Assembly (NCBI GenBank): GCA_002256025.1
Contig: NKIB01013149.1
Coordinates: forward strand, 1-63,596
Length of the DNA stretch: 63,596 nucleotides
Direction: 5' to 3'
From: Asterionella formosa
Taxonomy: Eukaryota
The position numbers were made by a program, and so were the translations under genes. Positions 1 to 60,693 of the stretch are shown one piece after another. The stretch's first letter is position 1. Each line of letters begins with the position of its first letter. Below the pieces are notes generated by a model. It made no database searches and was not told the DNA's origin. It worked only from the letters and a program-made list of their open reading frames with translations.

Positions 1-721
1 CGTAGCACGGATTTTAAATATGGGTAGTCTGATGGTGCAATTTTGGTTTCTCTAAGTAATAGTGCTGCAATCGGTGGTGCAATTGTGGTGCAAATGCCAA
101 TGGGCAGGTGAATTTACGAATAGTTTTTATCTTTTTCAACCCTGTTTGGGAAAATCTCAATAATACCACGTCCAACTCTGGTACCAGGTACATACCGGTA
201 TGCCAGTACAGACTACGGTACCCCGGTACCTCGTACCCGTAATATGCCCAAAAGCAGATATCACTTGTACAAAGTTGTTTGGCACGGTCCTCCCTTGTAC
301 CATAACTTACGGTATGATTTTATCTACCGGTATTAGAATTAGCAATTCTTATACATAAATTGTATCATGTATATACAGATGATGTATGCAGTACCGGGAT
401 ATAGCATAGCTACATAGTAATCCGCATAAAAAATATTATTGAAGGATGCAAATCCTGGTACATAAGAAATGTACATATATATGATATCATGTAAACCACC
501 ATCACTTTATTCTAGTCTGTCTGTACGACATGTTCATTCACAAAGTACAGTACCGGGTACCGGTACTGTAATAAAAATAAATAGATACCGCTATTTTAAT
601 AGCAGTGCGAAGCCAATTAAGATTCCAAAAGGGGCCGTATGCAACACCGGTACTAACACAGCTTCCAGCTATTGCGGACAACAGACCTTTCAAGAGCGGT
701 TCATCATTGGCTTCGTCCAAC

Positions 722-3259
722 ATGCCTCCTCGACGCCGGAACAAAGGAAAACAAGCGACTTCGGGTCCAACGCTTCGCCCCGCGGCGTCGGGGGACTCTG
801 ACGAAGAAGTCACCAAAGAAATCAAGGAGCCCCAACTCGTTCTCACAAGTGACAAGCGTAGGGGCATTTACGAATGCGATTATTGCCACACGGATATTTC
901 GCAAGTTCCGAGAATCCGGTGCGCTGTTTGTCCCGACTTTGATTTGTGTCTGGAATGCTTTGCCACAACTGACCACAGTGCTGCAATCGCTCGCCTCAAG
1001 GCAGCGGCAATGGCGTATGGGGCCTTACAAGACAACGAAAAGCAGGGGTCTATTTCTGGAATTTCTTCAGTAGCTGCAAATCATGTTCACACTCATGGAT
1101 ATCGGGTAGCTGACAGCACGAGGTACCCACTTTTCCCTTCGGCTAGAGCGATATCACAGTCCACCAAATCAGATTTGGGCGACTCAATTGATGCAGATGG
1201 TGACGACGAAGACAACAAAGAAGAAATTGAGGATGATACTGTTGTCGAACCGGAGGAAAAGGAAGAAAATGATGGGCTCGCTCCTCTCAGCGAAGGCGAC
1301 AAGATGGATGTGGACGATACCGATGAACCTCAGGCTGATGCCGAACCAGTCGCAGACGAGACGACAACAGAAGAATCAAAGGCATCTAAGGTTGCATGCG
1401 CAGAGAAGGTCGACGACAGCTTTGTTGATTGCAAGACCATCATTTTGCAAGATGATTCCAAATCCATTTGGACTATCGAGGAAGATTTACGCCTCCTGGA
1501 TGCCATCTCCACATTTGGCCTCGGAAATTGGGCTGACATTTCGGAAGCAATAGCGGGACAAGGATCGTCCAACAAGACTCCCAAGCGATGCATGGAGCGC
1601 TATTTTGATGATTACTTGGGACGATACGGTCACATCCTTCCCATGTATACAATTGTCGGAGAAGCCGAAGATGTGGAAGAGACAGAGGAAGAGGAAATTA
1701 AAAGCGACGATGGTGAGGAATTTAGAGCATCCAAGAGGCGCAAACCCGATCGTGCTACTTTGATGCGTTCATCAAGCGCAGTATCAATTGCCACGGTTAG
1801 TCGCCGAAGTAAAAAGGTGAAGGTTGTACCAACAGCAACGCTCCCAGGTTACGAAAACGTTTGGCCAGATGGGTACGTACCACCCATCAAGCATGCCGAG
1901 CTTGGTCTTGAAGTGGGAAGAAATATAGCCGTTCGAGCCGAACTTGCCTTTGTCAAAGCAATTACGAATGCTGCAACCAAAGCCGAAGCTGATCAGATCA
2001 GAAAGGAATGGACTGAAACCCGCCTCAACCAAGTTGATGGGCCAACTGCTCTCCCTATGCGTCCCGAAGATCTCACCACTTTGCCTGGTTCGGAGTTGGC
2101 AGGTTTCATGCCTCGTCGTGGCGACTTTGATATGGAATGGGACAACGAGGCAGAGCAAGTCATTGCCGACATGGAATTCTCAACCAATGACCTTCCTCAA
2201 GACCGTCTACTTAAAATTCAAGTGATTGAGATATACAACCAAAAACTTGACGAGCGAGAACGCCGAAAGAAATTCCTTTTGAACCGTGATCTTTTGGACT
2301 ATCGCAAAAACCAGCTGCTCGATGCCCAAATTCCTAGAGATGAACGAGACCTGGTTCGTCGCATGCGACTGTTCGAGCGGCTTCATACGCCTGAGGAACA
2401 TCAAGCATTTCTCGGCGATATTATCCGGGCCAAACGACTTCGAAAGGAGATCGCCAAGCTTCAAATGTACCGAAGAATGGGCATCAAGACATTGGCGGAA
2501 GTTGAAAGATACGAACTAGACAAGAGCCGCCGTGAATTTCATAAAACAGCTCAACTTCAAAAAGAGGTGGATGTCAAGGGTGCACACGCGACTTCGACCC
2601 CAAAATCACTAATGCAAAAAGATGTTGCAACAAGTATATCTTCTGGAAATTTACAAGAAGATATCACGTCCTCCTTGTGGAAGCAATACAGAACAAGTGA
2701 TCGCAAGAACCGCCGAAGCATCAACCGATCCAATTCAGAAACGAACGCGAGTCCGGACACGAAGCAACCTAGCGGGACTTCATTGGGAAGCGTTGATGTA
2801 GCCGATGTCGAAATGAATGAAGCTGCAGAAGAAACGGTAGTTGCACCGAAGGGAAACGACCTTACGACTCCTGATGGAAACACAGCAATTGAGGGCAACA
2901 CAACGGAGATACCAAGTGCAAACACTGGGGAGTCAAGCCCCGAGCCAGCTGTGCCCATTATTTCCAATAAATCCCCCGGATTTGAGCTCCTCTCATCGAA
3001 GGAAACGGATTTGTGCCAGAAACTGGGTCTACCTCCAATGCATTATCTTTGCGTGAAGAAGGCTTTGATCTTAGAGTCACTTAGACGAGGCCTTTTGGAC
3101 AAGGAAGGCATTGGATCAAGTAAGCGATCAATTGTTAAGATTGACGTCGAAAAGAGAGGGGAAGTGATTGACTTTATGCTCCAAGCTGGGTGGATCTCTA
3201 CCAAGGCAGGGGCTTCTGCGTACCAACGCCACGTCGTCTCGACTCAGAACGACGAATAA
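722..3259 (+). CDS. ADA2: Transcriptional adapter ADA2 (SAGA/ADA complex subunit)
   Basis: Single long ORF, first ATG at 722 (MPPRRRNK). ZZ zinc finger (CDYC..CAVCPDFDLCLECF..H), SANT domain (WTIEEDLRLLDAISTFGLGNWADIS), ADA2 box (GFMPRRGDFDMEWDNEAE..IADMEF) and C-terminal SWIRM-like region (LLSSKETDLC..KIDVEK..VIDFM..GWI). Confidence 0.93.
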   Translation: MPPRRRNKGKQATSGPTLRPAASGDSDEEVTKEIKEPQLVLTSDKRRGIYECDYCHTDISQVPRIRCAVCPDFDLCLECFATTDHSAAIARLKAAAMAYGALQDNEKQGSISGISSVAANHVHTHGYRVADSTRYPLFPSARAISQSTKSDLGDSIDADGDDEDNKEEIEDDTVVEPEEKEENDGLAPLSEGDKMDVDDTDEPQADAEPVADETTTEESKASKVACAEKVDDSFVDCKTIILQDDSKSIWTIEEDLRLLDAISTFGLGNWADISEAIAGQGSSNKTPKRCMERYFDDYLGRYGHILPMYTIVGEAEDVEETEEEEIKSDDGEEFRASKRRKPDRATLMRSSSAVSIATVSRRSKKVKVVPTATLPGYENVWPDGYVPPIKHAELGLEVGRNIAVRAELAFVKAITNAATKAEADQIRKEWTETRLNQVDGPTALPMRPEDLTTLPGSELAGFMPRRGDFDMEWDNEAEQVIADMEFSTNDLPQDRLLKIQVIEIYNQKLDERERRKKFLLNRDLLDYRKNQLLDAQIPRDERDLVRRMRLFERLHTPEEHQAFLGDIIRAKRLRKEIAKLQMYRRMGIKTLAEVERYELDKSRREFHKTAQLQKEVDVKGAHATSTPKSLMQKDVATSISSGNLQEDITSSLWKQYRTSDRKNRRSINRSNSETNASPDTKQPSGTSLGSVDVADVEMNEAAEETVVAPKGNDLTTPDGNTAIEGNTTEIPSANTGESSPEPAVPIISNKSPGFELLSSKETDLCQKLGLPPMHYLCVKKALILESLRRGLLDKEGIGSSKRSIVKIDVEKRGEVIDFMLQAGWISTKAGASAYQRHVVSTQNDE

Positions 3260-3366
3260 GGACCGAACAAAAGGATGCAAGCAGTATGGGATAGTAATAG
3301 TTGCAAGCTTCATTTTTATGCTACTACTAAATGCATGGAAGTTAGTTGTACTTTCAATATATTTTT

Positions 3367-4434: not shown

Positions 4435-6179
4435 GGTGAGCTTTCGCGTAATTCGCCCCTCGGTCCAGGTGAATACCGATATCTGAAACACTAGAGATGA
4501 TAGATCATAAGCAACCGCCCAAGACCAACAAAAAATAATTTCGATCGCGTTCCGATTGATCGATTTTGGCTTTTGCTATGATGATCATGGCTTAGACTGC
4601 TATACGTAATGTCCGTCGTAGCTATGATACTTTTTAGGGAATAAGGACATAAAAATTACCGGTATTTACAGCTATAGGAACCCTTGTGGTGCTGGAAGTA
4701 AAGTATGATGGGACGATTCAAAGCTACATATAAGAGTGCCGCCATTCCATGTATTTTTTGTGGAGCATTGTAGGGAAAAGGTGTTCAGCAGGAACTCCCT
4801 GACTGATGTTTGAAGGGGGTTCGATCCCTTTGAAAAACAAGGACCCAAAATGTGAACTGGTTTCAAACCAACTCCCAAACGTTTTAAATGTTCTAAACTT
4901 AGTAGTGATTAGTTTTTTACTATTTTCATTTATTTCATTAGAATATCAAGAACTTCAATCCACCTACGTATGATGTTTCAAAAACTTCTTGAAGTGAGGT
5001 TATTTTTACACATTCTAACAAATCAACCACAAAAACAACAACATCAACTATTTTAAGACGAAATCATGCCACCTTCCAGTGGTGGCCATCTCATTTCCGA
5101 AATTGGAGTTAGTGGTAAAGGAGGAAAAAATATAGTTGCCGATGAAAATCATAATTGGTGGTCCTCTAAAATGACTTTTCTTCCGATCTTGCTCATTGAT
5201 TAATCACCACTGAAATCGACTTGACAGAAAATGGATCAGTGGACATCTTGCTGTCGAGGTTAGTCTCCTCGAGGATTTAACTTTCCTTCGTTTGTCCAGA
5301 AATGCCATAAATTGAACAATTCCTGGTCAGTTGGCCCAATTGACTTCGCTAACTCTCCTTGATGTAGGGCCCTACAACAATCATATCACCAATTGAACCA
5401 ATCACATCACCAATAGAAACAGTCTCTCAACTGAACAGGAATCATATAATCAACTATAATACATTGTCGAAATTGCTGCAGGAAGATATATGTATTGCAA
5501 AAGTTGTGTTAATAAATTTGCAAATGAATATTGTAAACAATCACTTTGTGACTTTGTAACTTCTTTTATATCAAATAGGAAGCAAACGCTGTCCATCGAA
5601 CAGCAATGTGAAGCATTTCTAGACCAGGATGTGTTTGACTTCCCTATTTCAAACTTTGATCAACGACTGTATCTAAGCATATGGAAAGGGTGTACCTGGT
5701 ACCAGGTACCGGTATATTGGTGAAAGCTCCATTTAGCGACATCTCTGACTTGATATTAAATTTCTTTAACCCTACCTCGAGTTAGGGGAATAAAGGTTAT
5801 CTAATAAACTGCATTCTGGTATTACTAGGTACTACGTATTACTCTGAGGGTGCCTGTTGAATCCACAAGTGTGACTTGAGTTCAGTTGTGTCAATAAGAC
5901 AACAACGTCCAGAATACAAGCATACAGGAGGCTTTATCGATCTAAACCAGGTAACTATAAAAGAATGAGCATAGCCCATATATTATATAGTGTACCTGGT
6001 ACCTGGTACCTATTTTGGTACCCTTGTTGGTGACGCTTTTTTGGCCGATGACGTGGCCTTGTTCTGTTTCTTTTTAGTCACATGAATCCATTCAGTACCT
6101 TGATTATAGTTTGATGAGTCCCTTTCCACATTTCCTAACAGTGCCTAAAAACCAAATCGAATCCTTTCAAACGTTTACC

Positions 6180-19917: not shown

Positions 19918-21063
19918 CCTGATCAACTCCATCAATTGGGATGATGCCTTGAACCAAACACAATCATTTGGCCTCACGATTGATCCACAGCAGGCATGCT
20001 GCTCACAGCTTCTTCGATTGGTAGTACCTCCAAGGCCAAGGATTTCGCCATCACAAATGTCATCTGCAATTCTCATGTTGCTGCATGAATACCCCTACTA
20101 CCGGTACCTGCATACTGGTATGTGAGAATATTTTTCATAAACCTGGCATGTGATGATACTTTACACGGAACAGTAATATTCGAAAATAAAAATGAATTAA
20201 TAGAATACGTTTATGTTATGTTATGTTATTTTTTCTTTACACATACCAGATGTACAAGGGGATACAAGACAATGGGGGGATACGAGACACCGGGTTTTAC
20301 GGCATGTGAATCGATGATCAGAAACTCGTCCTTCACGCTGTGTACGCTGTTTACGGGATCTTCCAGAGCATATTTGGTTCAGCCAAAGCAGGTCAAGAGC
20401 TGTAAGTTTTTTCAGGAATAAACTGTTAGGGTTAATTACCATCATGTGGTGTTACATACTATCAGTACCTGGTACCAGTACTACTCCGTACTCCAGGGTG
20501 TTACCTGGTACCTGGTACCTGGTACCAGTCCCCTTATATGATAGTAGTACTTGCACATGTGTACGGTAGGTACCTGGTACCAGGGTAGTCTACAGTAAAC
20601 TACTCCTGACAGCAAGGAGTACCGGTACCCTGGCACCCCTCTCTGACTCAGTCAACAAACCATCCTCGGCCACGACACCACATGCATTATATCGTAAACG
20701 GTTGTGTTTCATGGTGCAAGGAACAACAAATACATACATACCGAAATATTTATTTATGTGTAATGAAAGTCTTGACAGGTACCAGTAATACCGTAGCCGT
20801 ATAGTACCTACACAGCTCTTAAGCCTGTACTACCTCCGAGAGTGCCTGTTTACTGTGCTTGTTACGTCATCATCTCTTGTCCACATGCATCGTCATTGTC
20901 AGGGCTGATGATGTGATCTCGTTCCGACGGCGGATTTTGCGGGTCATTGTGACGAAGTTCTGTGTTTGCCACCACTGCCTCCAGCACCACATTAGTTTAA
21001 CAATCCGACGTAGCTTCACAGGTATCCACCACAATCTTCCTATTGCAGACATTGAAAAATAAG

Positions 21064-21830
21064 ATGAAACTCGTTCTTGCACTCAACGTTTTCGGCGCTG
21101 CCGCTGCCTTCCTTCCTTCCAACATGGTGGCTCGTCACCAAACGTCGTTACAGATGGGTGACGACAAGGAAATGTCAAAAGCAATTCCTTTCGTCCCTCG
21201 CCCGAAGCTTCTGGACGGAAGTCTCCCTGGAGATGTGGGTTTCGAGTACGTTTCTGCCTTGTACACTGCTCATTCTACGTCGCGATGTTTAATGACCTAT
21301 TCCGCTAACGCTGACTCCTACTGACCTTCCTCAGTCCATTTGGTTTCGGTGGTGTCGACAAGGCCAGTTTGCTTCAGATGCGCGAGGCCGAGATCAAACA
21401 CGGCAGACTAGCAATGCTTGCCGCTGTCGGGTGGCCTCTGGCCGAGCTATTTGACAAGCCTATCGCCGAAACTCTCGGCCTTCCTTCACTTCTCACCAAT
21501 AGTGGGGAGTCACCTTCTGTTCTAAATGGTGGTTTGGAAAAGATTGATGCAGCCTACTGGATTGCTGTTTTGTCGCTTGCAGGAGTAATCGAGATTGAAA
21601 TCACGAAAGTCAAGGAGACACAAGGCAAAAATTATATTGCAGGCGATGTTGGTTTTGACCCACTTAGTCTACTACCAAAGGAAAAGCAAGCCAAGTTCGA
21701 GATGCAAACTAAAGAAATCAAGCACGGAAGAATCGCAATGATGGCTGTTCTTGGATTTGTTGTTCAAGAGCTCTTTTATGGCAAGCCTGTAGTTGCTGAA
21801 ACTCCGTTTTTCTTCCACCCACTTTTTTAA
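21064..21830 (+). CDS. Light-harvesting chlorophyll a/c-binding protein, probably Lhcz-like; exons 21064-21245 and 21335-21830
   Basis: Signal peptide ending AAAA-FLP (ASAF-type plastid motif). GDVGFDPFG is restored by splicing a GT..AG intron at 21246-21334. Also REAEIKHGRLAMLA, GDVGFDPL and KEIKHGRIAMMA. Confidence 0.93.
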
Positions 21831-24069
21831 TTTTCTTTCACGAGGGTAAAATGAGTCCCAGTGCTTATAAATCTTTCTTGCTAGATTCCCAATGCTTTTT
21901 ATATGGATTGTTGTTAATAGTGCAACTTCTTGCTGATTTGACTTTCTTCTTGTTGGAATTTCCCAGTGAGAAATGAAATGCCACTTCAAATTCATCAATG
22001 CTCTAAGAGGGGCAGCAAGCCCCCTTGCACAATATCAATGACAGTTACACAAAATGAGATACCCGTACTACTGCAGCTGCAGCTAGCACCAAGTTCATGT
22101 AGTGAACTTGATAGTTCAACTTGTTTGCCACTTGAGCATGGGAAGGAATGGGATTTGATGAAAGACTTGATATAAATATCTATTGGATTTGAACCAGGTA
22201 TTAATCACCAAAACGTCGTCATTGGAGTGCAAATCTTGTGCTAAAATTATTAGTTCTAAAATATCCTGTCCAAAAATTTCCATTGTAAGTGCCCACTTCC
22301 ACATATATAATATGATTGGGCAACATGAATTACTTACCTCCATTTGATTGGCCCGGTTTGCAAGCTTGTGCAAACCAGCAGTGCTGGCCACACTGCTGGT
22401 TGCACATGTAACATTTTTTGGGATGTTTGTAGGTTCTGTATCCACTACGACTGGTAGCTGACCATCATTGATCGAACTTGTACCAGTACTTGAATGCACT
22501 TTGCCATCAAAGAATGGACAGAGTGCACTGCTTTTCCTTCGATGATCATTTCGGTAAAAATGTTTACATTAACCAATTATCTTGTCGACTTTTCTTGCTG
22601 TCTCATGACTTTTTGTTAGTGCAACACCAGAGCCATAAGTCTTACCTGATTTGTTGCCTTGTCTTTCTTGTTTTCAAATCATGCAGCATGTATTTTTTCG
22701 TTTCGTTTACTTTTCCGTTTGAATTGGGCTTTGTAGGTTGCATCATTGTTCCATCGCTTTTCTTTCTGTCGCCAGAATAAAAATCGTTCCGTCGCTTTTC
22801 CTTCTGTCTCCAGAATGATTCTTTCAGTTGTGACATCTCCATTCCAAATTGCTTGTAGTATGCATCCTTCTTTGTGTATTGTGTAGCTCCTTGTGTGTGC
22901 TGCCCAGCAACCAAAGCAACTAAAAATTGCAGGCCACCGGATCCAGCAAACACCTTGTTTCTTGGACATCGTCATGACACTGCATTGTTCATTGCTTCGT
23001 TAATCTGAGTCAAAGGGAGGATGAAATAATAGCAGCTTTTCGCCATTGACTTTCGTTTCAACATGCAACATCAACCATGGATATAAGTTTCGTTTCTTTT
23101 TCCTTGTCATGATATTTTCCATTGCTGTAATTTTTTCCTGCTTTTACACGGAACCATGTCTCAGAGCTGTAATCATGGCAGCCAAACAAAAGGATGATTG
23201 GTGCCTTGGAGGATTCAGTGAATTCGGTCAGAGCAAGGTTGCGATTTTTCTTGATCCATGCCCCATTGTAAATCTTTAGTCGGAGGTGCCCTACAGTTGT
23301 CAGGATTTAACAAGTAGGTTCTGGGTAATTATGAGCTTAATGATTAGTGTATCTATATTAGCTCCTAGTCCAAGGGGGCTCACAAGGGTCTTGATGAGAA
23401 GGGTATGTACTAGGTGTCAGGAGTCCATGCTAGCTAGGTGTCATGTTTTAGCCTAGCATTGGTATGTCTATTCTAGAGATACATCTGTACCAATAGTTAT
23501 CACGTAACATATAGCTGCGGGTACATAATGCAATATGTACTACGAGCTATATACTAGTAACCGTGTGTATAGCATGACGTACTAATCATGATCACTCTCG
23601 TGTACATGTATATGTACTACGTATGGGTTCCATGGTAGCCGTGTGCGTAATGTAAAAGGGTACACCTTTCACTTATGGTTGACGTGGTATACATACACAG
23701 TGTTTATTGCGTAAATCTCTACAGCGAGAGTAAACAAGTATATGGTCTGTATAGAAGAGCCTATAAGGTTAACGTTATATGGGACTTATACCATCTAATG
23801 ATATAGTATATTTACCGTGGTACCTAGTACATACTGTACTATAGGTCAGGAGGCAATCTGCTTTTGAAGGACGTTCGAGGGACTTGATAAACCCCTATCC
23901 CTATATAAATGTATCGTTGCACAGGATCGATCACTCGCCCACACTAAGGGAAAAATGTTCACCTATGAAAAGATTTTTGCGATGAATATTAATTTGTTCA
24001 GTACAATGCATAGTTAGTTTGTTGAAAAGTGACTGTACAAATGTATGTTAGGGTACAACATCCATCACT

Positions 24070-24250
24070 TGTGCAGCCACTGTTATTTTCCATGGGCCAA
24101 TTAAGTCCACGACTGCGACATCTGACCATGGTAATAATGGGGAATTCCGAGGTGTTAGTTCACCATAACACCAGGTAATTTTGTTTGTTGACAAGCTTAA
24201 AATGTGCTTACAGTATGTTTTACTCTGGCTTTAATGTTGAATGATAAAAA
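24070..24250 (-). mobile_element. Ty3/Gypsy integrase remnant
   Basis: The minus strand reads ..CQQTKLPG.. then GELTPRNSPLLPWSDVAVVDLIGPWKITV, the PWxxVxVDLIGPW start of a Gypsy integrase core. Disrupted. Confidence 0.65.
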
Positions 24251-25110: not shown

Positions 25111-25968
25111 TGTCAAAGTATGTCTGTTATGTTGTTGATGTTGACAGGTGTCTGAAGACTAGATGTAGTCTGAGGAATGTTTTCACGGAAATAGACAGTA
25201 TTTATATAGCAAAATAAGACGCAAATGAGCGGCGTGAGAAAGATCTTGACCGGTCATTTCAGGGCAGTACTGGTGGAGCGTGCTAGAGTAGGCGCCATAT
25301 ATATTTCAACATGGCTGGTAGCAACTATATCTGGTATGGTTACCCTTACAACAATGGATGATGGAAAAATGTTGAAACTCACCAATGTGCTCTATGCACC
25401 AGAGTTCAAGCAGAATATCATCAACATTTCGAGAATCATCGACAAGGGCAACAAAGTTTATGTTTGACGATGACAAGATGACAATCAGAAACAGCAACGC
25501 CTTTTGATTTGCAAATGCGATGAAATGAGGAGCCAACACAACAATCTATCAACTATGATAAAGAAGACGAGAGTGAATGGACAAAAGTTGAAAGAAAGAA
25601 GAGTACTACAACAAAATCGATAAGTGAAATGAACAACAAAAGTGACAAAGAAAATGAGAGGGCACTATGAAAATTCCTGTAGGATAGGATGTGTCGAGTA
25701 TACACATTAGGATGATGTGGTACCAGGTATGTCGAGCATCAACAGGGGAGGGAGTCAGAATGTGTCTGTTAGGCTGCTAATGTTGACAGGTGTCGGAAGA
25801 CTAGATGTAGTCTGAGGAATGTCTAAACGGAAATACCGGTAGACAGTATTTACCGGTATATGCACACTGGCAAAATAATACGTAAACGAGCGGCGCGACA
25901 AAATCTTGACCGGTCATTCCAGGGCTGTACTGGAGCGCGCAAGAGGAGTCGGCATATATATTTCAACA
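25111..25968 (+). mobile_element. Miniature, internally deleted Ty1/Copia LTR element (858 bp) with both LTRs and TSD
   Basis: 5' LTR 25111-25311 (TGTCA..TCAACA) and 3' LTR 25753-25968 (AGTCA..TCAACA). Purine tract AGGGGAGGG abuts the 3' LTR and TGG follows the 5' LTR. Internal LKLTNVLYAPEFKQNIINISRI resembles the Copia pol protease-adjacent region. Flanked by CCAGCT at 25105-25110 and 25969-25974. Confidence 0.85.
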
Positions 25969-26294
25969 CCAGCTACCGGTATCATCTATGAATTGACAGC
26001 AAGAAAGCTCGCGCCATTTTTTTTCATCACTCTACGACATACCGGTACAGCCAGATTGTACATCAGACTATGTAGCTCACATCGATTATTTTAATATACC
26101 GTTACTATGCTGTTATTCCTCAATAAAATATGCACCGGGTATATATACCTGGTACAGGTAGACTGCTCCAAGAAGGCCAAGTACCGGTATACGATTTGAA
26201 GTGTTTACCTGTACCCTCAACTAATAATAATCCATACATCACCGGTAGTAGTGCATGGAAACCACTTTTCCAGTTCTGGAACAGCGATTCGAAG

Positions 26295-27318: not shown

Positions 27319-27650
27319 CTGCGGTTAGAAGGAATGATAATTCTCGATTGAATTATATTCATGGAATGACCCTCAAGCCTTTTTGTCTGGTATACTATGG
27401 GAACTATAAACTGGTTAATGATCTTGTAATTGGCAATACAGTATTATTACAGGTGGGGTTGTTCAGCTTAGTGTGGCACCCCAAGAGATTGGAATGTTGA
27501 CGGCAATCTTTGCTAGCTGTGCATCAACCGAGAGATAATTCTCGATTAAATTGTTTTCGTTGAATTACCGACAAACGTTATTAATTGTTTGGCTTACTAT
27601 GTGAACAATAAACTGGTCCGTGATCTTGAAATTGGCACTGCAGTATCCAT
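27289..27650 (+). repeat. Diverged tandem duplication (198-bp period) of the UNG C-terminus and 3' UTR
   Basis: GATTGGAATGT.GA.GGC..CTT.GCTAGCTG..GATAATTCTCGATT..ATAAACTGGT..TGATCTTG.AATTGGCA at 27289 and 27487. The copies encode DWNVDGELS* and DWNVDGNLC*. Confidence 0.8.
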
Positions 27651-29030: not shown

Positions 29031-30646
29031 GAAATCTAATGAACCATATCATATAGATTGGGAAACTCAGGTGAAAATCGATATCGCATGCTACCAAAAC
29101 ATCGTACTATGAGCCTGCAGGGCTTTTAACGTAGCGCCCTGGGTGAATGGTACCTCCTCCCACCATGGCGGAACCATCTTTCTCCCACTGATAATTCCCT
29201 AGTCCCCGCTGTCACCATGCAAAGTACTCATGATCCAACGCAGAAAAAAAGAAATCCACGAGATAATCAGGGCTGAAATCGAATTTCATGGCAAGTGTTG
29301 AACATGTCTGTCAGCAGAAGTGATTACACGAGCCCGAATAAGGACATTTTCTCGGGGGCTTACCATGCTCTTGATTCGAGCTTATTAGAACCAGAACTAC
29401 AGCAACAGTACTCCAAGCATGGCCCTGTCGAAATTAATGAAATATGAAGACACATCGATGTACCATGGACTTGGATTACAAGTTTGTAATGATTGTAGAT
29501 TGATAGAGCAATCACTGATGTTTGCTGTATGATTGTCAACCTTACGTAAAATCATGTACTTATATAATTTTTGGAATGTTCTCTAAGCTAATTATCTATA
29601 ATACTAGGGCTACGGTCGCTACTATTCTACCGGTATATGTAGTCTGAGCACGCAACATCATTCCATCCATATCGTAGGGGGATATTGCTATTTATTATAA
29701 AAATCAAGTCACCAAGAAATATTTGTGACAACAATTTTGGCACAAATTTATTGGTATTTCGAAGCGCACCCAATAGTTGGTAGATGCTACGAATCTGTAG
29801 CTCTCACATAGTAATAGTTGCCAGAAAGATGTGGTTTCTACACATTTATATTTGTTTTACTTTGCTTGCTTTTATGAAAGAGTGAGCTTAATGTAAATGT
29901 AAATTTGAATGTATAACTTTGAAACTTCCAAGCTCATGCATGGTTCAAAATAGAGGTGATCTTTGGAGGCAAGGTTCATTTGTGTTCCCAACTTGAACTG
30001 AGAATAAACTACATCCTCTTCCTTAGTAATACACATTTGTCTTAATCTTGGCCTGTCTCAACTTAGGCCAGATGCTGTTTGATCGAAGACTGCTTACAGA
30101 ATGATCCTGTTAATCATAAATAGATCATATCTAGTTTGCTTCTTCAATGTTCCTTGATTTTGTGGACATATATGTAATTGTCTAGTCAATCATTTCTTGA
30201 TTTGGCCTCTAGGTCTGATTGCCTTCTAGAGTCCATTGAAAAGGTTAGTTCCTCTCTCAACTGTGGCATTTCACATGCAATATTCAACCATGTGTCCTTG
30301 AATGAATCATCTAGTGGATTGTGGTGGTCTTCATGTTCCTAATCAGGTCACTAGCGGAGAAAATATATTGACACTCTCATAACCTGATCTGGAATCAGGA
30401 ATCTGTACATGTTTCAACTCCAATGATGTCTTTTTCCTATTTATAAAAATAAATATGATCATAGGCACCATAATCCTTGGTATGCTCCGCTGCATGCTCC
30501 ATTTACCAGTATACCGGTAATCATCAGAGATTACCGTAATTCTTGTTGTGTCAATTTGAACTCGAGCTGTTTCGTCCTCAAAGCGCTTTTGGCTTCACCT
30601 TCAGCACTCGTATCATTTCTAGCCCGCTGATTCAGCGCATGGAATA

Positions 30647-35140: not shown

Positions 35141-35144
35141 TATT

Positions 35145-37460
35145 TTAAATGGTGGCTAATATCATATTTTGGTGCTCTCGGCGATGTCGAAGTGCTGTTA
35201 GGAGCAGTTCAATTTGCTCTTGACTCTTATTGACCGAAACAGTAGGCACGATCTTCTTCGGTTTCAAGCAGTCGAGGCACTCTATTAGTTCCGGGAAGCT
35301 GGAGTGCTCACTATAAGCCACTCCATGGACAGTAAACGCGCCACTTGTTCTTGTGGAGACGAGTCCAGCTCCCTTTCCAGAGGTCATGGCCCAACCAGTT
35401 GGTCGGAAACCGACAACTCGATCGAAGGTGCGAGTGCTGAATACCTTCGAACCCATGTCGACGTAGCTCCCCATCTTTCTAAAATTGATGTGACCCAGCG
35501 GCACCACCCACAGACAAGTTTCCTCACGCTCTGTAGTTAGAATATTCAATTGCTCCTTAGGCAAATCGAGTGCCTGTAGAACCTTCATCCTGTTCTTATC
35601 GACACATACGCGCATCCCAAGCCTTTCCGCCACAGATAAGTAAATGCGCTCTTTCCTTAGATCAAAGAAAAAGGACACGAGAGTAAGTATACAAAAGTTT
35701 ACCACTCCCTTTGTATCTATTTATGTCACCTACCCTATCGTGTATGCGCCAAACAAAAATAATGTCTTGCCCGGGCGTGCATTCTCACGTACAGCAACTT
35801 CAATACAAGCTTGGATTGCTTCATTTTGGGTAGGTAGGCAATATTTTTCATCACAGTATGTGGTGTCCAAGTACAACTCGTCTAACCGATGTTGGTTCGC
35901 GAACAACTTTTTCAATGGTTGTTGTTGCAACATAATCTCAGCATTCCACCTAAAATCGCCGACGTGCAGTATTCTTCGTTTCCCGACTTCGAAGAGAAAC
36001 ATGACGGCTCCTGGACAGTGATTTGCGTCAAGCAATGTGACCGTAATTGGTCTGCCGTTACTCTCAACCACGGTCGGTGTGTACATTGGTATAGGATGTA
36101 ACCATTTCTTTTCAACGCCAAGCTGCTGGTTGACAAGATTCGCTGTCGGTAATGAACAATAAATAGTGCCACAGTTCCAATCTTTTGTAATTCCCCCGTA
36201 ATGGTCGCTATGGAAGTGAGTTAACCAGTAGTTCTTGGTTCGCGACGATTGCGCGTACATGAAGCCATCAACATTGAAGTCCGTTCCCGTAATTCTCTTG
36301 TATGCCGGGCAATTGGAATGATCGCTCTTCATGAAGTTGCCACCCCAACTGCCAACTCTTTTTGTTTTTTTCGTCTTCAAAATCTCGCTGGCCTTCGCTA
36401 CCCTGCGAGCACCGAGCAACAAGACTTTGTTTAGGGATCGCACAGGTGCGTGAAAGAAATTTTTCAGGGTGGTCTGTACTGTTTCGGATGACCTCGTACC
36501 CAAAGATCCTTTTGTATCTACGGCTTCTGTTGCAGCTAAACTTAGTTCAGTTTCCGCTTGTTCGTGCCAACTTGCGGCCAACTTGCAGTAAGGATTAGTG
36601 CCGTGAACAGCACTAGCGACTAACTGCGCTGATTTGACAATCTCTTCTTGTTCTTCCACGACAGTATCTCTTCCCGAAAAACCGTGTTTCTTCGAACATC
36701 GCTTGATATGATTCAACCGGCCCTTGATTCCGCTCGTTCTTTCGAAGTTCGATCCGCAAACAAGGCAGATGTCACCGGGGAGTTCTACTGTTGATGTTAC
36801 TTGATAAAATGATTCGCCGACAATATTTGAAGCCAATAGCTCAGGTAAAATGGTTTGATCTAAAACAACACTGCTTTCTGGTTCACAGGAAATATTTTTC
36901 TGGCTCATGGCTGCAAACTCTGCAAGTGTAAATTCTTCGTCGTCATCTTCGCTACTAGAATCCGCATTGCTGCTCCCCTCGGGCAGTAACATCGCATCTT
37001 CCTTTTTTGTTTCGAAGGTCATTCTAGAGTCATTACCAGCCTGTTCTATATCCTCAACTTTGGCGGCATGAGAGTCTCTCACAAGTAATTCTCCCCTTTC
37101 TGGCTCGTTCGGAGTAGCGATAAATTTTGAGTTTGGTCTACTATTATCTGACAAATTATCCACAGAAGTTTTCAAGCGCTTGGTCTCACGATGGATTTCG
37201 TCATTTTCAACAGAATAATTTGTGTAAGGATATGCATCGGGAGCTTGATCTACCATTGGTAATTCCTTTCGACAAACATCGCATCGTACGATACCTAATG
37301 CAATGACAGCGCAAGTTTTGGAACACATACCGGGAAGAGGGATGGTTATAGCGAATGCATTTTCACATTTATTGTGAGCAACATTAGCAGAATTGTTCTC
37401 ACCTTGTTCAGAGATAAAGCGTCTATGACACTTCTTGCAAGCCAATACCTTTCTCACCAT
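35145..37460 (-). CDS. SNM1: DNA cross-link repair nuclease SNM1/PSO2 (DCLRE1A-like, beta-CASP); exons 37460-35734 and 35655-35145
   Basis: THFHSDHYGG, LLDANHCPGAVMF, LHVGDFR, LYLDTTY and VAYSEHSSFPEL..IVPTV motifs, plus a UBZ-like CLVC..NHIKRC. GAYTIG|KER is joined by a 78-nt GT..AAG intron at 35733-35656. Confidence 0.9.
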
Positions 37461-38159
37461 GGTCAAGTCGGAGTAAATGTCATTGTCTATGTCGGTCCGA
37501 ACATCTTGCTGATGTCAATGTTACCTAACATGTATTGTGAACTTCGACGATGATAGAGGAATTACTTGGCAATGATAATTCATCAGACCGAATTCAAACC
37601 AAACACCAGCAAGGTGTAGTAATTGTGCTGACACTAAAACTTTAGCTGCGTTTATCCGATATTAAATTAATTTTTTTTCAGCAAAATGACCGCAACTTGC
37701 AGCTAGATGTACTATTTTGGTACGCCCAGGTACCAGGGACTCCCTCTGAACGAAAGAAATGATAGTTGCGGCGATTTACAGCGACTCAAGTCCCGAGCGG
37801 CTTAAGTTTAGGACGGTTTACGTGGAGAGCATATCATTCTTTTTGTACGTCAGGATCGTGTTACCAACAAAAATGCGTTATGTGATTGACTAGCATTTAA
37901 ATAAATTATCCGAAAGCGACTAAACATCCTTGTACATTATTGACGAAATTCTACCAAAGTAGTATTTTTCTGTAGGGCTCCGTTAGTGTTCTACTCTGGA
38001 CAGGTCAATACTGTCCGGTACCCCTCCCTTGCTTGGCCGTGGTGAAAGGCAAAAATTCTACCCAGTAGTACTGGGGGTAGAATTTTTTTCACATTTTGGT
38101 AGAATATTCTACCAACGGACCGATGGAACCCTGCAGTATGCCATGGTATTGTCCAAGAA

Positions 38160-38340
38160 ATTCTACCAGGGGTACCTGGTACCTGGTACCTCGTACTGGA
38201 GTACCGGTAGTGGTACCATTACCAGGGTACCTGGTACAGTACTGGTATTGGTACCTGGTCCCCGGCCCTGGTACCAGGCATGTGTAGCTGGTGAGTACTT
38301 TTCGGCACGACTCTTACCTGTACCTGTGTACCTGGTGCAC
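38160..38340. repeat. Densest cluster of TA-C...G-TA units (TACCTGGTA, TACCAGGGTA, TACCGGTA, TACAGTA)
   Basis: Example: GGGTACCTGGTACCTGGTACCTCGTACTGGAGTACCGGTAGTGGTACC. Similar clusters at 178-242, 544-570, 5692-5716, 5991-6022, 20464-20632, 25974-26250, 43050-43083 and 59679-59705. Confidence 0.85.
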
Positions 38341-40569
38341 TGGCTGTGTTATGTTATGTTGAGGGATTATACTACTGGTAAAACATCATAAATTAAAATA
38401 AACTTAAACATCAGCATGGCAACAAGCAATGTTGACCAGGAGAGTAAATGAACTGACACATTCCCATGCTTACAAAAATGTACTTATTTCCATGATGTTG
38501 TACAGAGGTTATGGCAAATAGCCAATGATAGTACTACAAGCTGTGAGTTTAGTGTAGAGGAGCCTGGGGAAAACAAGGATGATAACCAAACACTTGGCCA
38601 GTATTATTCCATTAACTATTACTGCAAAAAAGGCATTGTAGTACTTTATGCCACATTGTCTTTTCACTTGGAATGTAATTACCCACAGTGGAAATCCAAC
38701 AAGGTATGGCTGTGCCTGTCAATGACCTTGTCATCAAAAAGGCCATAAAACAGAAAAAGTCTGCAGACAAGACAAGGGAAACATTACAAGTAAGGCAGCC
38801 TCTAGAGTCTCACATTTAGCAAGATTTCAATCATGATGGTCATCCTTTTCTCATTCAAGTATAAAATATCCAATTCATCGCTCAATGGTAGTATAAGCTG
38901 CCAGCATGCGTGTTGTGTCTGGCAGTTCCATGTGGTCAGCCAAATTGACAATTGCTTCCAACTAACAAGAAAACTAACTGCAAATATTTGATTCCTTGTC
39001 GCTCTGATGGCCAAGCTGCATCTGTGTTGAACGCAAATTTTAAGGACAAGAGGGATGAGCCAAGCCAGGTTCTCATTGATTGCATCCCTGTCAAAAGGCA
39101 GTTGTTTTCTCGTTTCCTTGGCCATTATCCTGAGACGGAGTGTATGGACCAATGCACTAACCCAAAAACAGTGGGTTTTCTGCTAAAAACTGACAATCCA
39201 GCAAATGCTAAAGAAAGACTTAGACAATTCTGCAAGATGATGTGTATGCAGGAAAATCATGAGTTTTGACAATTGAACAATGGTAAATTATCAAAACAGG
39301 ATCTCTAAGTAATCATTAACACATACAAGTTGAAATGAAAGCTCCCAAGATGATATTGTTTGAATGAGGGTCGCACATGTCGTGGTGGTCAGCGCTGGGC
39401 AGTGTTCCTGACAAAGTTGCTTTTGCTGCAACAAATGCCAACAGCAACCCAAAATGGAAATGCCAGCCATATGCTATCAAGGCGATCAATCCTAAACAAG
39501 TTCAGAGGTAACAAACAGAGTTGAACGATTAAAACGAGTGAGCTAAAAAAATTTAAATCTATTTTCGATTGCTTCTTGGTTGAGCTGGGCTTGAAAAAAT
39601 GATGATGTGAGCCCTGTATGTCATTGTGAACCTTTCTAGTCACCTAGCCAGAGTACCCAAGATGTGCAAGACATCGGGGATTATAAACCATTCTTAGTTT
39701 ATTTATTTCAAGTTCAATGCTGACTTTGAGACTGACTAAGTATATATTACTCATGAATTCCTGGTTACTAGAGGATAAGTTCTACTTTCTTTGTAGAGCT
39801 GAACGTTGCGCATTCCATAATCAAATGCATTTGATACAAACAATGATATCATTTGTGATTAGTGATTCTGATATTTTGGAGACCGTTGAAAAGGCCAAGT
39901 TTGTCGAATTTTTTAATGACAATTGCTCAATGTTGGCTGGGTTTGAAGGAGAATTGAATGCATAGGTCAACTCTATATAGGCATAGGTCAAATCTATAAA
40001 ATGTAAGGAAATAGGACCTGGCAAGAAAGGACAGAAAGGGACATTGGTTTGTACTATGCTAGAAAATGCAGGGTCAAAAACATTTTGGCATCGTAAAAAA
40101 CCGAAGGTCCCTTCTGTACCCTCTTGTCAGAAGTTACATACAGATGTTACTTGAAGATTACCTATATATGCTTTTTGCCTTCAAACCCCACTAATGTTGA
40201 GAAGTCATCCAAAAAGTCAACAGGAATGGCCTTTCCAATGATCTCAAAAATATTGGAATATTGGAATCAGAATCACCATGTACCAAAATGTACTCATTGG
40301 AATAGGAGCCTTGCGAAGGAATTAAAATGTAAAATCTCCTGTATATATATATGCCTATGTGTTAGTTTCAAAAATGTTAAAATATTTCAAATGGAATCAT
40401 TGATATTCAAAATTAGCAATGAAAAATTCCCAATTCCAAGGAAATTTGGCAAACCTATCTGCAACTTTTAATTGTAGCCTAGAAAATTTATTTGAAAATG
40501 ATTTGCAGCGTCAAAGAGGAAGCAGTGGCCCAGTTTGTTGCAAGGTGGATCTGCACATTTTCAAAAATT

Positions 40570-42852: not shown

Positions 42853-43083
42853 TTTGACGAATCGTTCGATCCTTTCATTTGCTGAAAGCTCTGGCAATCT
42901 TGGTCATATATGCTCGCAGGTTGTTCCCATTTTTTAGTTCATTGGTGGTGGAGAAATAGGAGAGCCGACGTGATCTTGCCCTCTTCGTTTGATGAGGATC
43001 GCTTTGTCGTTTTTGTCCTTCTTGATGCATGATACATACGACTAACGGAGTACCTGGTACCTGGTACTAGGTACCAGGTACCC

Positions 43084-44688: not shown

Positions 44689-45017
44689 GCATTCCCGTCA
44701 TCCCCTTGTTTCAATACCCAGTCAGAACATGACGTGGCTACTGTGAAACTATACCTATTACTACGTTAGTACTGTGAGACTGTAGGTTTGCCCTACCAGC
44801 ATTCCCATCATCCCCTTGTTTCAATACCCGGTCGGAACATGACGTGGCTACAGTGAAATGTATCTATTACTACACTGGTACTGTGTGACTGTAGGTTTGC
44901 CCTACCAGCATTCCCTTCTTCCCCTTGTCTCAATACCCGGTCGGAACATGACGTGGCTACTAAGAAACTATACCTATTACTACGCTGGTACTATGAAACT
45001 GTAGCTTTGCACTACCA
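44689..45017. repeat. Tandem repeat, ~110-bp unit x3
   Basis: GCATTCCC..CCCCTTGT.TCAATACCC.GTC.GAACATGACGTGGCTAC..TATTACTAC..GTAGGTTTGCCCTACCA starts at 44689, 44799 and 44908. Confidence 0.9.
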
Positions 45018-50559: not shown

Positions 50560-51205
50560 CGTCTCTCTAAGGAGAACACAAAGGAGCCTAATTTTTCTCC
50601 CCAGTGATCCCAGAACCTCTTGGATGTCAATTGCTTGCTACAGAAAATGGAGAAAAGCCGCCATGATCTGTTGATCGTTGCTGTATGGTGCCGCTAACCA
50701 AAACCTCCAGAAATCTCAATGAAATGTTTCTTGACTTGAATGCTGCCCAAGAGATCAAAACCAGTGGAAAAAGCAAAAGGGAACTAAAAATTCTCTGCAA
50801 AAATCAGGACAAGTGTGAAAGAGAAAGGAAGGTTGGGAGGGGAAGTAAAGGGATTATTGCTGGTCTTGCAGGAACAAGGATGGATTGACCCAAACAATGT
50901 TGACAAATAGATACTTACCGGAAAAAGGAAGCAATCCTTTCGGCATCATCAATCTATGTACAAGCCTGGCTGCGTGACCTGATGTCAATATAGCTACCTC
51001 GACTTCATCAATGAAGAAAGTATGATGGGCGGAGCATGTGAGAAAAAAATCGGGGTTTAGGTTTTCTTGATGCCAACGTGCTTGGCTGAACTTGCAGGAG
51101 GTGAAGGCATTGAGTAGTAACCTGGGCCTGTGCGGCCAAAGGATGAAAAATCTATGATAAGGCAGGGTGGTGAGATCCCGTATACTTCATTGTCCTGGAC
51201 CCCCC
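50560..51205 (+). mobile_element. IS630/Tc1/mariner-like transposase remnant ending in a TIR-like sequence
   Basis: Broken-frame fragments GWEG..KGLLLVLQEQGWIDPNNVDK, DFINEESMM and AELAG.EGIE..WAC resemble the KGL.xVL.ERG ... HCEL..IE..W family. Followed by CTTCATTGTCCTGGACCCCCC (ends 51205). Confidence 0.55.
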
Positions 51206-51850
51206 AATGTACACTGCCATGACTGAATTTTGACTGATTTTACTTAAGGGGGGGGGGTCCAGGACAATGAAGAGATTTCCCTTACTATAATGGACCTAAG
51301 TAAATTTCTTTAGTTCTACAGGATAGCGCACATTTTTCTAAGATGTATTAATATGACAATTATTTCCGTCATGTGAAAAATGAGAGAGTTCTTCACCTCG
51401 CAAGAAAAACGCGACTTCATGTTGTTATCGGCGATCTCAATTTTCGTTGTCATTATTAGTGTTATTACTTTACTTCCTTTACAATTGTATTTTCCATGTC
51501 GTTCTTAATACAGGTAGCAAGTTGCAAAGCGTCGTTCTCTATTTTCGTGGAGATAATTTGTATTTTCATCATGGTCAAGGTTGCGACAATATCATGAAGG
51601 ATTCTCCAGCTGCTCACAGCCACTACCTGTTATCTTTTGTGTTTTGTATGTACAAAAGAATCGCAAAATCGTTGCTAGATAATTATATACTAGTACCTGC
51701 CTACCACGAGGACAAAAAAGAATCATAGCACGTTACTTTGTCTATGACAAGAAAATTATTGGGTGTTTGGTTCCACCTCGAGAAAAATGTACAGGGGGAT
51801 CCAGCAACCATAGGTGTGGGGGTCCAGGACAATGAAGTATATGGCAGTGT
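51181..51850. repeat. Three copies of a TIR-like motif GGGGGTCCAGGACAATGAAG
   Basis: Reverse copy at 51181-51205. Forward copies at 51248-51272 (preceded by TTAA) and 51818-51850. ACACTGCCAT (51211) is the reverse complement of ATGGCAGTGT (51841). Confidence 0.85.
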
Positions 51851-54864: not shown

Positions 54865-55678
54865 AGAGAGATTCTACTGCTTTTCCCATAAGTAGAATAA
54901 TATTTTGGCATGTATGTATTCATACCGGGTTCTTTCCGATTCATTAGGCTGATTTCAGTCTCTCTTTGAAGCTCAATTTGAAAACTTTATTATTACTTTT
55001 CTTTAACTTTACAGACATCGTTGCATCGTACTTTTCTCTTGATTAAAAGGGCTATACATGATAAGGACAAAAATTGGAATTTGAACTACTAAGAATATTT
55101 AGTCATGTGTCAGTCACAACATGAAAAATTCCGAAGACACAGATCAGTCTGGACTGGAAGGACTCAATACTGCTTCAATGTAATGATGTAAACAACAATG
55201 ATTACCTCGAAGCATACCCATGGAGCACGCAAAATATGTCCAAGTCATCATTTTCCAGTTTACACATGTACTTTCAAGGTGGGAACTGTCAACATCTACA
55301 AACCTTTTCCCGAAATTTTGTGTGCCTTTCTTGGGCAGCCCAAAAACTCTGTGCTCAGCATTTTTGGTCAATCATGTCAACCTTCGTGGCCATTCTTCTT
55401 CATTTTTGTAATAAGGATTACATATCAATGCCTCCGCAAAGAGCTTGCGAAAACAGAGCATGCCATCAACCTCACCCCTCCTTACAGAAGTGTTTATATG
55501 ATGCAAGCAAGCATGGCATCTTCTGCCGTGACTGAAAGGAGCAATGATAACATTCTATTCTGTGTTTTGTCGCCCATATCATTTATAAACTAATTTGGGA
55601 AGACCGCTTTGCATCATGGACATTAAACATCCCCTCGGAATTCGTAGTGGCTTTAGAAAACCACTGTACATGTAATTT

Positions 55679-56086
55679 NNNNNNNNNNNNNNNNNNNNNN
55701 NNNNNNNNNNNNNNNNNNNNNNNNNNNNNNNNNNNNNNNNNNNNNNNNNNNNNNNNNNNNNNNNNNNNNNNNNNNNNNNNNNNNNNNNNNNNNNNNNNNN
55801 NNNNNNNNNNNNNNNNNNNNNNNNNNNNNNNNNNNNNNNNNNNNNNNNNNNNNNNNNNNNNNNNNNNNNNNNNNNNNNNNNNNNNNNNNNNNNNNNNNNN
55901 NNNNNNNNNNNNNNNNNNNNNNNNNNNNNNNNNNNNNNNNNNNNNNNNNNNNNNNNNNNNNNNNNNNNNNNNNNNNNNNNNNNNNNNNNNNNNNNNNNNN
56001 NNNNNNNNNNNNNNNNNNNNNNNNNNNNNNNNNNNNNNNNNNNNNNNNNNNNNNNNNNNNNNNNNNNNNNNNNNNNNNNNNNNNNN
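55679..56086. other. Assembly gap (N run)
   Basis: Run of N characters. Confidence 1.
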
Positions 56087-57069
56087 TTGTTTGCAGCTTC
56101 ATCATGACACAAAAAATTCAGATGATGGGGAATTGTCACCTCCAATATCAACAAATCGAACTGGAATGGCAACATTGTCAGTGTCATGAACTGCGCCAGT
56201 ACACTTGACAAGAAGTTTGAGCAGCTCTGAGTCGAAGCAAGGCATCACTTCACCTTCTGCTGCCTCCTCAAGCACATAATCACCTTCATCACAGTAAAAA
56301 GTGTATGGATCAATATCAGAAATGATCTAGAAGTGATTTTCAAGGGCATACAGCTCAGTTGTATCAGTATCATCATCTACACTCCTGGGAGCAGTGACTG
56401 CAATGGCCATCACCTCCTTACGTCTGATTTTCTTGAGCCCCCTTCTGCATCACGTCAATCTTTCAAGTCTGAACTTTTGCGATGTTCACATGATGATTAG
56501 GACCCAAATTGATTGGTGAAAGTACTTTGAAAGGCATGAAACGACGGCACCTTTGCCCATTGTCAAAAAAAATTCGTTTTTGTGCCATCCCGCACAGATA
56601 TTTTTGAGATTGTTTTGGCTGGCAGACTTCTCATGTATCTGAAATTTTTTAAGCCTTTATAAGCTTAATTGCCATGCATACCTCCAGAAGCCTACAGCTT
56701 TCTAGATTTAGATTAACTTTTCAGAAATGAAATATTGGCAAGGGATTGAAAACCCAGACTGAATCTACCGGTAGTTGATTAGACTGAAATCAGCCTAGCT
56801 GGAAAAAATCCGATACTGTTCGGAGTTAAGAGTTTACGCACTGGACCGCTATTTTCATTTTTTATTTTTAGCTATGGGGAAGCTACACACTTGCTGAATG
56901 GGAACAAAAAGGTGATTCTAGATCTTCGTTGTTCCAACATGATGCATACCGGTATTATAATAGATTTCATTCCCATTGCTTCAATTATTTATTCTTCATA
57001 TTGTTCTTCTATTTTGAGAGTGGTCCAGCGAATAAATAAAGTGGCAAGAAGCCGCTTGAACCGGAAAGA

Positions 57070-58554: not shown

Positions 58555-58683
58555 TGCATTTCGTGTTGAATATTTTGATGATCGGAATAAGAGAAGCACC
58601 AATATGCTGCTGCATTAACCTAGTAGTTACCCGCAAACGTGCATTTTTGATTTGCTTAAATAGCGCTTTCGTTATAAGCAATA

Positions 58684-59544
58684 TTATGCCCTCGAGAAGA
58701 CGAAGAAATTGTCATCTTCATCGCGAGTGATCCGAATGCCCTCGTCGACATAAAACGTCTTGAGAGGGACCACTGGGACACTGCCAAATGCGCTATAAAT
58801 GTCACCAACAGGCACCTCAAATTTCATGTCATCCAAAAATTGGTTGAGGAGAGGAACATTGGATCCCTTTATTTGTGTTGTGGTGATTTGAAGCTCCCAT
58901 GTTTCAGGCGAGACGACCTTCAGCGATGCCGATGATATAACCGTTCCCTTGACTCGAAATGGAAATCCTGGTAAAATTCCAACCTCTACATCTACTTCAC
59001 TTACAAGTTGTTTGGTAGACACAGTCTGTCGGATGCGTCCGACTCTTGACGCAGTCGTCGCTGCGTCATGAATATCAAACCCATTTTGAGCGATCTCTTT
59101 GTTGGAGTCACCCAGAGCGGCTCGGATCGACAAGAAGAAGGGACTGGACCGAAAGAACTGAGTCGAAGACAGCACCAAGTCCCATTCGCCATTGGAAGCC
59201 GACGCTGGATCCGACGTGGGATTCAGTGCTTCAAGCTGCGTTACCAAATCAATGACGATATCCCGTTCTTCTGAAGTGGCATATTCGCCGCGGTTGGTAA
59301 CAGAGGCCAACAGAAGAAGCTCTCGTTTCAGCGCATCCCGAATGAAGGCATCGTCCGCGTCGGTATCCACTGTGACCGATTTTTCACTACTTGTCAGGTC
59401 GAAAGAATCGTAATCCGAGGGAGCTTCGCTCATCTTCGGAGCTTCTACATAGCTTCTGTGGAAACTCAGAGGAACGAACGCCTGAGCAGAGGTTGCTACG
59501 AATGCGAGGAAAAGAACGGAGCGGATTGCTGTTGTCCTTTGCAT
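58684..59544 (-). CDS. Plastid lipid-associated protein (PAP/fibrillin family)
   Basis: Signal peptide ending SAQA-FVP (plastid motif); [33 protein letters not shown]-terminal [20 protein letters not shown]. Confidence 0.88.
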
Positions 59545-59907
59545 GATTTTGTTAGGCTCGTTGGAGCCTGATCTGTCATGCATCATGGTCGCTCGCTCAC
59601 TTGGTTGTATGTAGAGGTGAACAAATTATTATTTCACTGATGTCCTGGTATCATGACACGCACCATGCATCATCACGTGGTACCAGGTACCAGGTACCTG
59701 GTAACCAGTTACTGTTCAGGTACTCCCGTTTATTCATTTTACCCGGAAGTAACGCACATGCACATGCACAGCACACGAACACGTCATTCGACTAAGGTTG
59801 CAAAAGCCAGCATGATAGTTTCCTCGAGTCCTAATAACCAAGAAAACGGCAATCCATTGGTCATAACATTGCATTTCTGAGTTCCTCGGGTGACTGGAAT
59901 ATTCAAG

Positions 59908-60669: not shown

Positions 60670-60693
60670 TAGCAGACCGACTATGTTTGACAA

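Follow-up and report, generated by a model that had tools for sequence, protein, structure and literature searches.

Footprints of the form TA-x-TA, in which a short insert x separates two TA dinucleotides, are textbook products of Tc1/mariner transposons. Excision of Sleeping Beauty is reported to leave TACAGTA or TACTGTA together with non-canonical forms (10.1101/659086), and Passer is described as leaving footprints of 0-4 bases and as favouring promoters and transcription starts in human cells (PMC9976928). In Triticeae, Stowaway elements are reported to leave footprints made of terminal fragments of both ends, and a new element has been described beside an old footprint (PMC1925063). In oomycete promoters TACATGTA and (G)TACCGGTA have been published as candidate transcription-factor sites (PMC3520976, PMC3597505, PMC10031896), and one of these studies weighed an origin of TACATGTA as Tc1 footprints and rejected it on abundance and conservation (PMC3520976). 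Here we analyse a stretch of 63,596 nucleotides from the diatom Asterionella formosa (assembly GCA_002256025.1, contig NKIB01013149.1; below, the window), in which TA-bounded palindromes, above all the words TACCGGTA and TACCWGGTA, lie in clusters upstream of genes. A diatom source is also indicated by the Lhc gene, by named homologues of a resident transposase in Fragilaria crotonensis and by freshwater sequencing runs that contain this DNA. These words are very probably footprints left on excision by two or more groups of TA-duplicating DNA transposons of the IS630-Tc1-mariner (ITm) type.

Abundance and position of the palindromes

Counts in the window were compared with 100 dinucleotide-preserving shuffles of it in 1-kb blocks, while genome counts and searches refer to the 68-Mb assembly, in which the window is contig C13149 and L-numbers denote other stretches. 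TACCGGTA occurs 22 times and TACCWGGTA 24 times in the window, each against a shuffle mean of 0.3, and TACCAGTA/TACTGGTA 11 times against 1.5; none of the 100 shuffles was as high for any of the three. In the whole genome there are 28,528 sites of TACCGGTA against 1,718 for the reversed control word, and 5,576 sites of TACCWGGTACCWGGTA against 2 for its control. TACCGGTA is mostly isolated, the doubled form TACCGGTACCGGTA being found once among 90 sites. A preliminary description of the window had given 13 ranges for clusters of such words, and the words that it quoted are present at all of them. The palindrome observation is confirmed for the two main words, TACCGGTA and TACCWGGTA, and its word list stands for these and for TACCAGTA/TACTGGTA; the other listed words are weakly enriched, namely TACWGTA (14 against 6.5 shuffled, reached by 2 of 100 shuffles), TACTCCGTA/TACGGAGTA (2 against 0.2, reached by 4) and TACGTA (10 against 6.7, reached by 15).

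The position of the two main words was determined in the window and 36 further stretches (422,896 bases; contigs chosen for length and hence non-random), in which 65 open reading frames (ORFs) were called host-like by length and GC. ORF starts served as a proxy for transcription starts, some of the ORFs being internal exons. The density of the two words is 3.2 per kb at 0-500 bases upstream of ORFs, 0.11 per kb at 0-500 bases downstream, 0.07 per kb inside ORFs and 0.57 per kb in distal DNA, with the upstream enrichment peaking 250-750 bases 5' of the ORF start. At least one main word lies within 1 kb upstream of 47 of the 58 ORFs with a full kb, compared with 6 of 54 downstream (Fisher p = 2e-14) and 30% of random 1-kb windows. 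In six spans rich in AT and in repeats (36,052 bases), 7 main words were counted. All 12 ORFs tested in the window have a main word within 800 bases of the first ATG, a count in which two clusters are each common to an ORF pair and the UNG start is uncertain. The earlier statement that clusters precede essentially every host gene can thus be kept for most genes, and "every" for this window only. Two further corrections apply to it: several of the upstream regions are multi-copy repeats by read depth, and the UNG cluster lies partly inside a long-terminal-repeat-like (LTR-like) repeat.

The ratio of CCGG to CCAG/CTGG forms is 64:16 at 0-500 bases upstream, 66:44 in distal DNA and 5:23 in the downstream bins. 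This fits less CpG decay at promoters rather than more methylation, and it is an indirect measure, since CCAG may itself be a direct scar. The suggestion that the words were co-opted as a regulatory or methylation signal finds no support in it.

Gains at TA sites and probable donor families

Because the regions upstream of several genes are multi-copy repeats, they provide natural controls for the gain of words. The window holds two copies of the LTR-like repeat; two positions with plain TA in one copy read TACCGGTA in the other, which lies on the UNG side. Thirty copies each of this repeat and of a second one were compared, and their private insertions at TA included CCGG, CCCGG, GG, GC and CCAGG. 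A wider survey of paralogous repeats (879 kb) gave 1,053 distinct indels of 3-12 bases, 163 of which have the form TA to TA-x-TA. The insert x was C/G in 64, GC in 26, CCGG in 12, CCAG/CTGG in 4, CCWGG in 3 and CC/GG in 3, with single cases of CCG, CCCGG, CCA and CCATGG. CCGG makes up 12 of 61 six-base indels and CCWGG 3 of 44 seven-base indels, and an identical unit adjoined none of these CCGG or CCWGG gains. Five of the 12 CCGG gains have at least two empty comparators. The minor forms CC/GG, CCG, CCCGG, CCA and CCATGG are those expected if CCG and CCA ends were retained in part. Reads of four sequencing runs over 20300-40200 were dominated by paralogous repeats, and the 12 of 404 indel rows examined there gave no readable strain polymorphism at unique promoters. 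Examples of C/G or GC indels that duplicate TA lie at window positions 10430, 17121, 17218, 23429 and 30024, and both classes are enriched in the window (TA-C/G-TA, 161 against 92 shuffled; TA-GC-TA, 22 against 8.9).

A search of the genome with DDE_1 gave 93 matches, among which the element ends fell into two families that begin CCGTA next to TA and one that begins CAG. Family B, one of the CCG-ended families, has 109 exact ends against 4 for its control, and its copies are 99.4-100% identical. Its transposase matches DDE_1 with E=1e-21 and has a DD35D spacing, counted on the L023 frame; a BrkDBD match is weak and below cut-off (E=0.005-0.007), and a Pfam search gave no HTH_Tnp_Tc5 match. The terminal repeats are short, and TA duplication is confirmed by empty sites in paralogues. 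By domain, ends and TA duplication the family appears to fit Passer as described in PMC7386202. Decayed copies of both CCG-ended families lie inside the window. The base before the TA is unbiased at CCG ends (G at 6 of 26) and at TACCGGTA sites (G at 43 of 160), the background being 24%; with elements that show no flank preference, TACCGGTA scars are expected to be mostly single. No CCGG-ended repeat pair was found in ~0.86 Mb, the recurring TACCGG continuations being internal to other repeats. A DDE_3 search of the genome gave no match among 16 candidates, and a search for an allele of L028 found only paralogous empty sites. Three other searches were negative, namely a profile search against sequences of solved structures, BLASTP with family B as the target and one for phage.

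TACCWGGTA has a different flank: G precedes it at 95 of 126 sites (background 24%) and C follows it at 102 of 126. These flanks led us to expect an element that ends in CCA or CCT and targets G-TA-C, and a search for such an element found a CCA-ended one. It comprises three subfamilies, with 437 + 98 exact ends against 8 and 0 for the controls. TA is duplicated in 14 of 14 paired copies (15 loci were examined, one of which gave no pair), and the empty targets read GTAC in 11 of the 14 and GGTACC in 7. At 59 CCA ends, the TA is preceded by G in 53 and by GG in 44; 16 of these ends directly adjoin an exact TACCWGG and 24 adjoin TACC(N0-3)GG. CCA elements also occur back to back on one TA, or parted by TA-TGG-TA. 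A longer terminus with a longer duplication was considered for this family and fits only 2 of the 14 copies, both inside chains.

A copy that fills a whole contig (L197, G000:C14068) has a 28-base terminal inverted repeat and an open frame of 779 residues. The encoded transposase has 265 homologues, and none of the 120 listed carries a Pfam label; a D-D-37-D triad (D171, D320, D358) is conserved in 82 sequences. The homologues listed for this widespread DD37D clade (P0001-P0120) come mostly from metagenome contigs about one element long, and those with a named source are hypothetical proteins of Fragilaria crotonensis. The predicted model (predicted local distance difference test score, pLDDT, 93) has an RNase H-like catalytic domain of mariner-type fold: it matches Mos1 (Z 12.7, root-mean-square deviation 3.3, 195 aligned), Metnase (Z 12.4) and Sleeping Beauty (Z 11.3), all well above other DDE enzymes, and Foldseek gives E=6e-4. 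Against a CENP-B chain the same model reaches Z 5.9 over 62 residues, apparently in the chance range. We classify the CCA family as a pogo-like, unclassified member of the ITm group, and do not file it under pogo.

At one homologous TA in a repeat family, L165 and L176 are empty, L226 carries a CCA element and L060 carries TACCTGGTA; L060 has a second gain of the TACCTGGTA type ~120 bases further on.

A proposed cycle and its rivals

The cycle would begin with insertion of an element, at which TA duplication is observed. Excision with a stagger of two or three bases would leave terminal bases on both flanks, and end joining would then give TA-x-TA, as Tc1/mariner biochemistry leads one to expect. 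Two CCG overhangs might yield TA-CCGG-TA by annealing at CG or by filling of CC + GG, in line with the staggered-cut model of 10.1101/659086. Two CCA overhangs joined over one mismatched base would yield TA-CC(A/T)GG-TA. As a TACCWGGTA scar leaves TA-CC and GG-TA, it remakes the preferred CCA target, and two TACCWGG scars in a row would centre on GGTACC. The next CCA element, of which copies do lie beside such words, may land on the scar, and chains of either orientation would grow. The 5' enrichment most likely arises because elements insert into accessible promoter DNA, where whole copies would be lost and scars of 6-7 bases presumably tolerated; promoter targeting here is plausible from the preference reported for Passer (PMC9976928). 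A further enriched variant, TA-CCAGGG-TA/TA-CCCTGG-TA, has 19 sites with G..C flanks and lies beyond a simple three-base model.

The process envisaged in the preliminary description is partly supported. TA-targeting insertion, with de novo gain at isolated TAs rather than slippage, is borne out by paralogue indels lacking identical neighbours. An insert-and-excise origin is supported by TA-duplicating gains and by matching element termini, from which we infer the excision step itself, and re-use of a TA made by an earlier event is likewise supported. Self-propagation can be retained for TACCWGGTA, whose flank is the CCA-family target, and not for the mostly isolated TACCGGTA.

Several observations weigh against the footprint origin. 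There are ~27,000 excess TACCGGTA sites and 109 exact family B ends, a gap of two orders of magnitude, so either most donors are gone or the cycle is far more frequent than element persistence. The commonest TA-x-TA indels are C/G and GC, and no donor for GC was established. Resident elements have no clear 5' bias in what is a small sample: of 40 CCA ends 7 lie upstream and 2 downstream of genes, and of 12 CCG ends none upstream and 2 downstream, compared with 70 and 56 of 600 random TAs. Seven of the 12 CCGG indels have a single comparator, so gain and loss are not polarised there. The CCA transposase has no Pfam match, DDE_1 included, and its profile match to the resident pogo families is not significant, though the three Asp align. 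L060 and L226 are paralogues (86.8% over 1,162 bases) and not alleles, so the scar is not attributable to that insertion; among the sequences compared, element and scar were never seen as alleles of one locus, nor was an excision observed. The CCGG word could also have another source, either CCA ends cut with a two-base stagger or a CCGG-ended family. As to the shorter inserts, any C-ended element could be the donor of one-base TA-C/G-TA scars; GC would need a G-ended donor, and none was found.

The scar excess and the missing 5' bias of resident elements would both be explained if a transposase nicked or cut TA without full integration, or a repair polymerase added a short templated patch, with no cycle of insertion and excision. 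The inserted letters and their minor variants nevertheless coincide with terminal sequences of resident families, and sites of the same type also hold elements, in one case at the homologous TA. We know of no mechanism of TA cutting without integration that leaves such scars, and consider this explanation highly unlikely. Replication slippage, or microsatellite growth of a seven-base unit, would account for the long same-orientation arrays at C1127:1635-1701 and C3176:619-671, and same-orientation pairs are slightly commoner in the genome (28 of the first 50 listed). Slippage would be expected to give almost only such pairs, whereas 22 of these 50 are mixed, as are 10 of 24 in a local sample; gains also occur without an identical neighbour, and TACCGGTA is mostly single. 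The gains at lone TA sites and the mixed-orientation chains refute slippage as the main source, for which we see next to no chance; it possibly extends existing long arrays, which it cannot start. Among the mixed pairs, CCTGG-TA-CCAGG (16) is commoner than CCAGG-TA-CCTGG (6).

The words might instead be transcription-factor binding sites kept by selection, whatever their origin. Their palindromy and strong 5' bias, peaking at 250-750 bases upstream, speak for this, and so do oomycete promoters, for which the same word is reported as a presumed site (motif-9 of PMC3520976, cited in PMC10031896; M94 of PMC3597505). Yet the words arise as whole TA-duplicating insertions, also in decaying repeats, their number and position differ from gene to gene, and the flank of each follows a transposon's target, which makes this reading improbable, though selection could still shape where words persist. 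Derivation of TACCWGGTA by CpG decay of TACCSGGTA was also considered and rejected: the sister product is not among the common five-base inserts, and CCSGG is rare (8 against 86).

Beyond the footprint origin itself, we put forward one more speculative and rather doubtful extension: that an unclassified DD37D diatom clade targeting GGTACC acts as a self-feeding ratchet which, with Passer-like pogo elements, rewrote most promoters, and that the oomycete palindromes have the same origin, some having been adopted by host factors.

Features of the window and comparison with known systems

The features are listed below, "scar" denoting a presumed footprint; no strand is assigned except where one is given.

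178..242, chained scar cluster upstream of ADA2
544..570, chain TACAG-TACCGGG-TACCGG-TACTGTA, 164 bases 5' of the ATG of ADA2
4657..4664, single TACCGGTA 5' of the aldo/keto reductase (AKR), a minus-strand gene
5692..5714, mixed-orientation chain TACCTGG-TACCAGG-TACCGGTA
5991..6010, TACCTGG doublet upstream of the 6180 ORF
19918..20302, minus strand, decayed end of the CCG-ended Passer-like pogo (family B), just outside the Lhc cluster; its terminal repeat can be seen, and it matches L023 at 71% over 422 bases
20464..20632, large scar cluster upstream of Lhc
25112..25311, plus strand, incomplete upstream copy of the LTR-like repeat, an internal control in which the TA sites are empty
25721..25729, +7 gain, TA to TACCAGGTA at GG-TA, in the LTR-like repeat; absent from 28 paralogous loci
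25834..25858, two +6 gains, TA to TACCGGTA at lone TAs, in the LTR-like repeat; 23 paralogous loci lack the first
25974..26250, scar cluster upstream of UNG
30504..30538, TACCAGTA/TACCGGTA/TACCGTA upstream of TRAPPC10
38160..38340, large scar cluster, 713-768 bases 5' of the start of the SNM1-like ORF
43050..43083, mixed chain between the divergent GT2 and Harbinger-like ORFs
51178..51844, non-autonomous element derived from family C (CCG-ended pogo), with a terminal inverted repeat of 27 bases and flanking TAs that are no longer intact
56766..56954, two single copies of TACCGGTA 5' of the amino-acid transporter
59679..59705, mixed chain TACCAGG-TACCAGG-TACCTGGTA in the divergent PAP/59908 promoter

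Pfam supports the gene labels ADA2, AKR, Lhc, UNG, TRAPPC10, GT2, amino-acid transporter, PAP-fibrillin and Harbinger-like, while SNM1 has only a metallo-beta-lactamase match below cut-off. A second contig, L002, equals the region upstream of ADA2 at 411 of 414 bases from 182 on, the differences being substitutions only. The plus-strand ORF at 59908-60672 has an in-frame TGA after residue 171 followed by 81 open codons, which would fit its earlier label as a candidate selenoprotein.

Other repeats are also present. The repeat at 29775-30420 is 650 bases long, has ends of the AGTTG type and resembles at least 40 other copies; it was considered as a donor of the GC scars and rejected on its ends, which are not TA-specific. 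A GTTGAAC boundary in L041-L043, considered for the same role, lies inside a shared alignment. Three imperfect tandem units of ~120 bases each lie downstream of the Harbinger-like ORFs (44690-45000). An inverted repeat pair, GGCTGATTTCAGTC, 1.85 kb apart, flanks an N gap (54945-56799); it ends just upstream of the amino-acid transporter, with TACCGGTA inside its end.

If the words are footprints, mutational scars can rank as the promoter words most over-represented in a genome, which is a trap for motif discovery. The idea is testable, as donors and a target rule are named, and a footprint that recreates its own target would lead in concrete steps from single insertions to tandem arrays. An unannotated transposase clade that prefers a target longer than TA has also come to light, and the interpretation of TACCGGTA and TACATGTA in the promoters of oomycetes deserves a second look. 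A literature search of limited coverage turned up no account of these words as footprints in diatoms.

Compared with the systems described so far, family B resembles Passer in its DD35D triad, short terminal repeats and TA duplication, as far as these are given in PMC9976928 and PMC7386202, and has a weak BrkDBD match below cut-off. The likeness to Stowaway, as reported for one locus, ends with scale, as here the footprints are genome-wide and the target preference is recreated by the scar itself. The words share with the reported Sleeping Beauty footprints the structure of TA, terminal bases of the element and TA, the two forms that differ at a central mismatch, and the shorter forms. Unlike those footprints, the main products here have four and five bases between the TAs, that is, a partial overlap of both overhangs, and they occur in tens of thousands and head the over-represented words in non-coding DNA. 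The same or sister TA-bounded palindromes are, by the published oomycete accounts, abundant upstream of genes in other stramenopiles.

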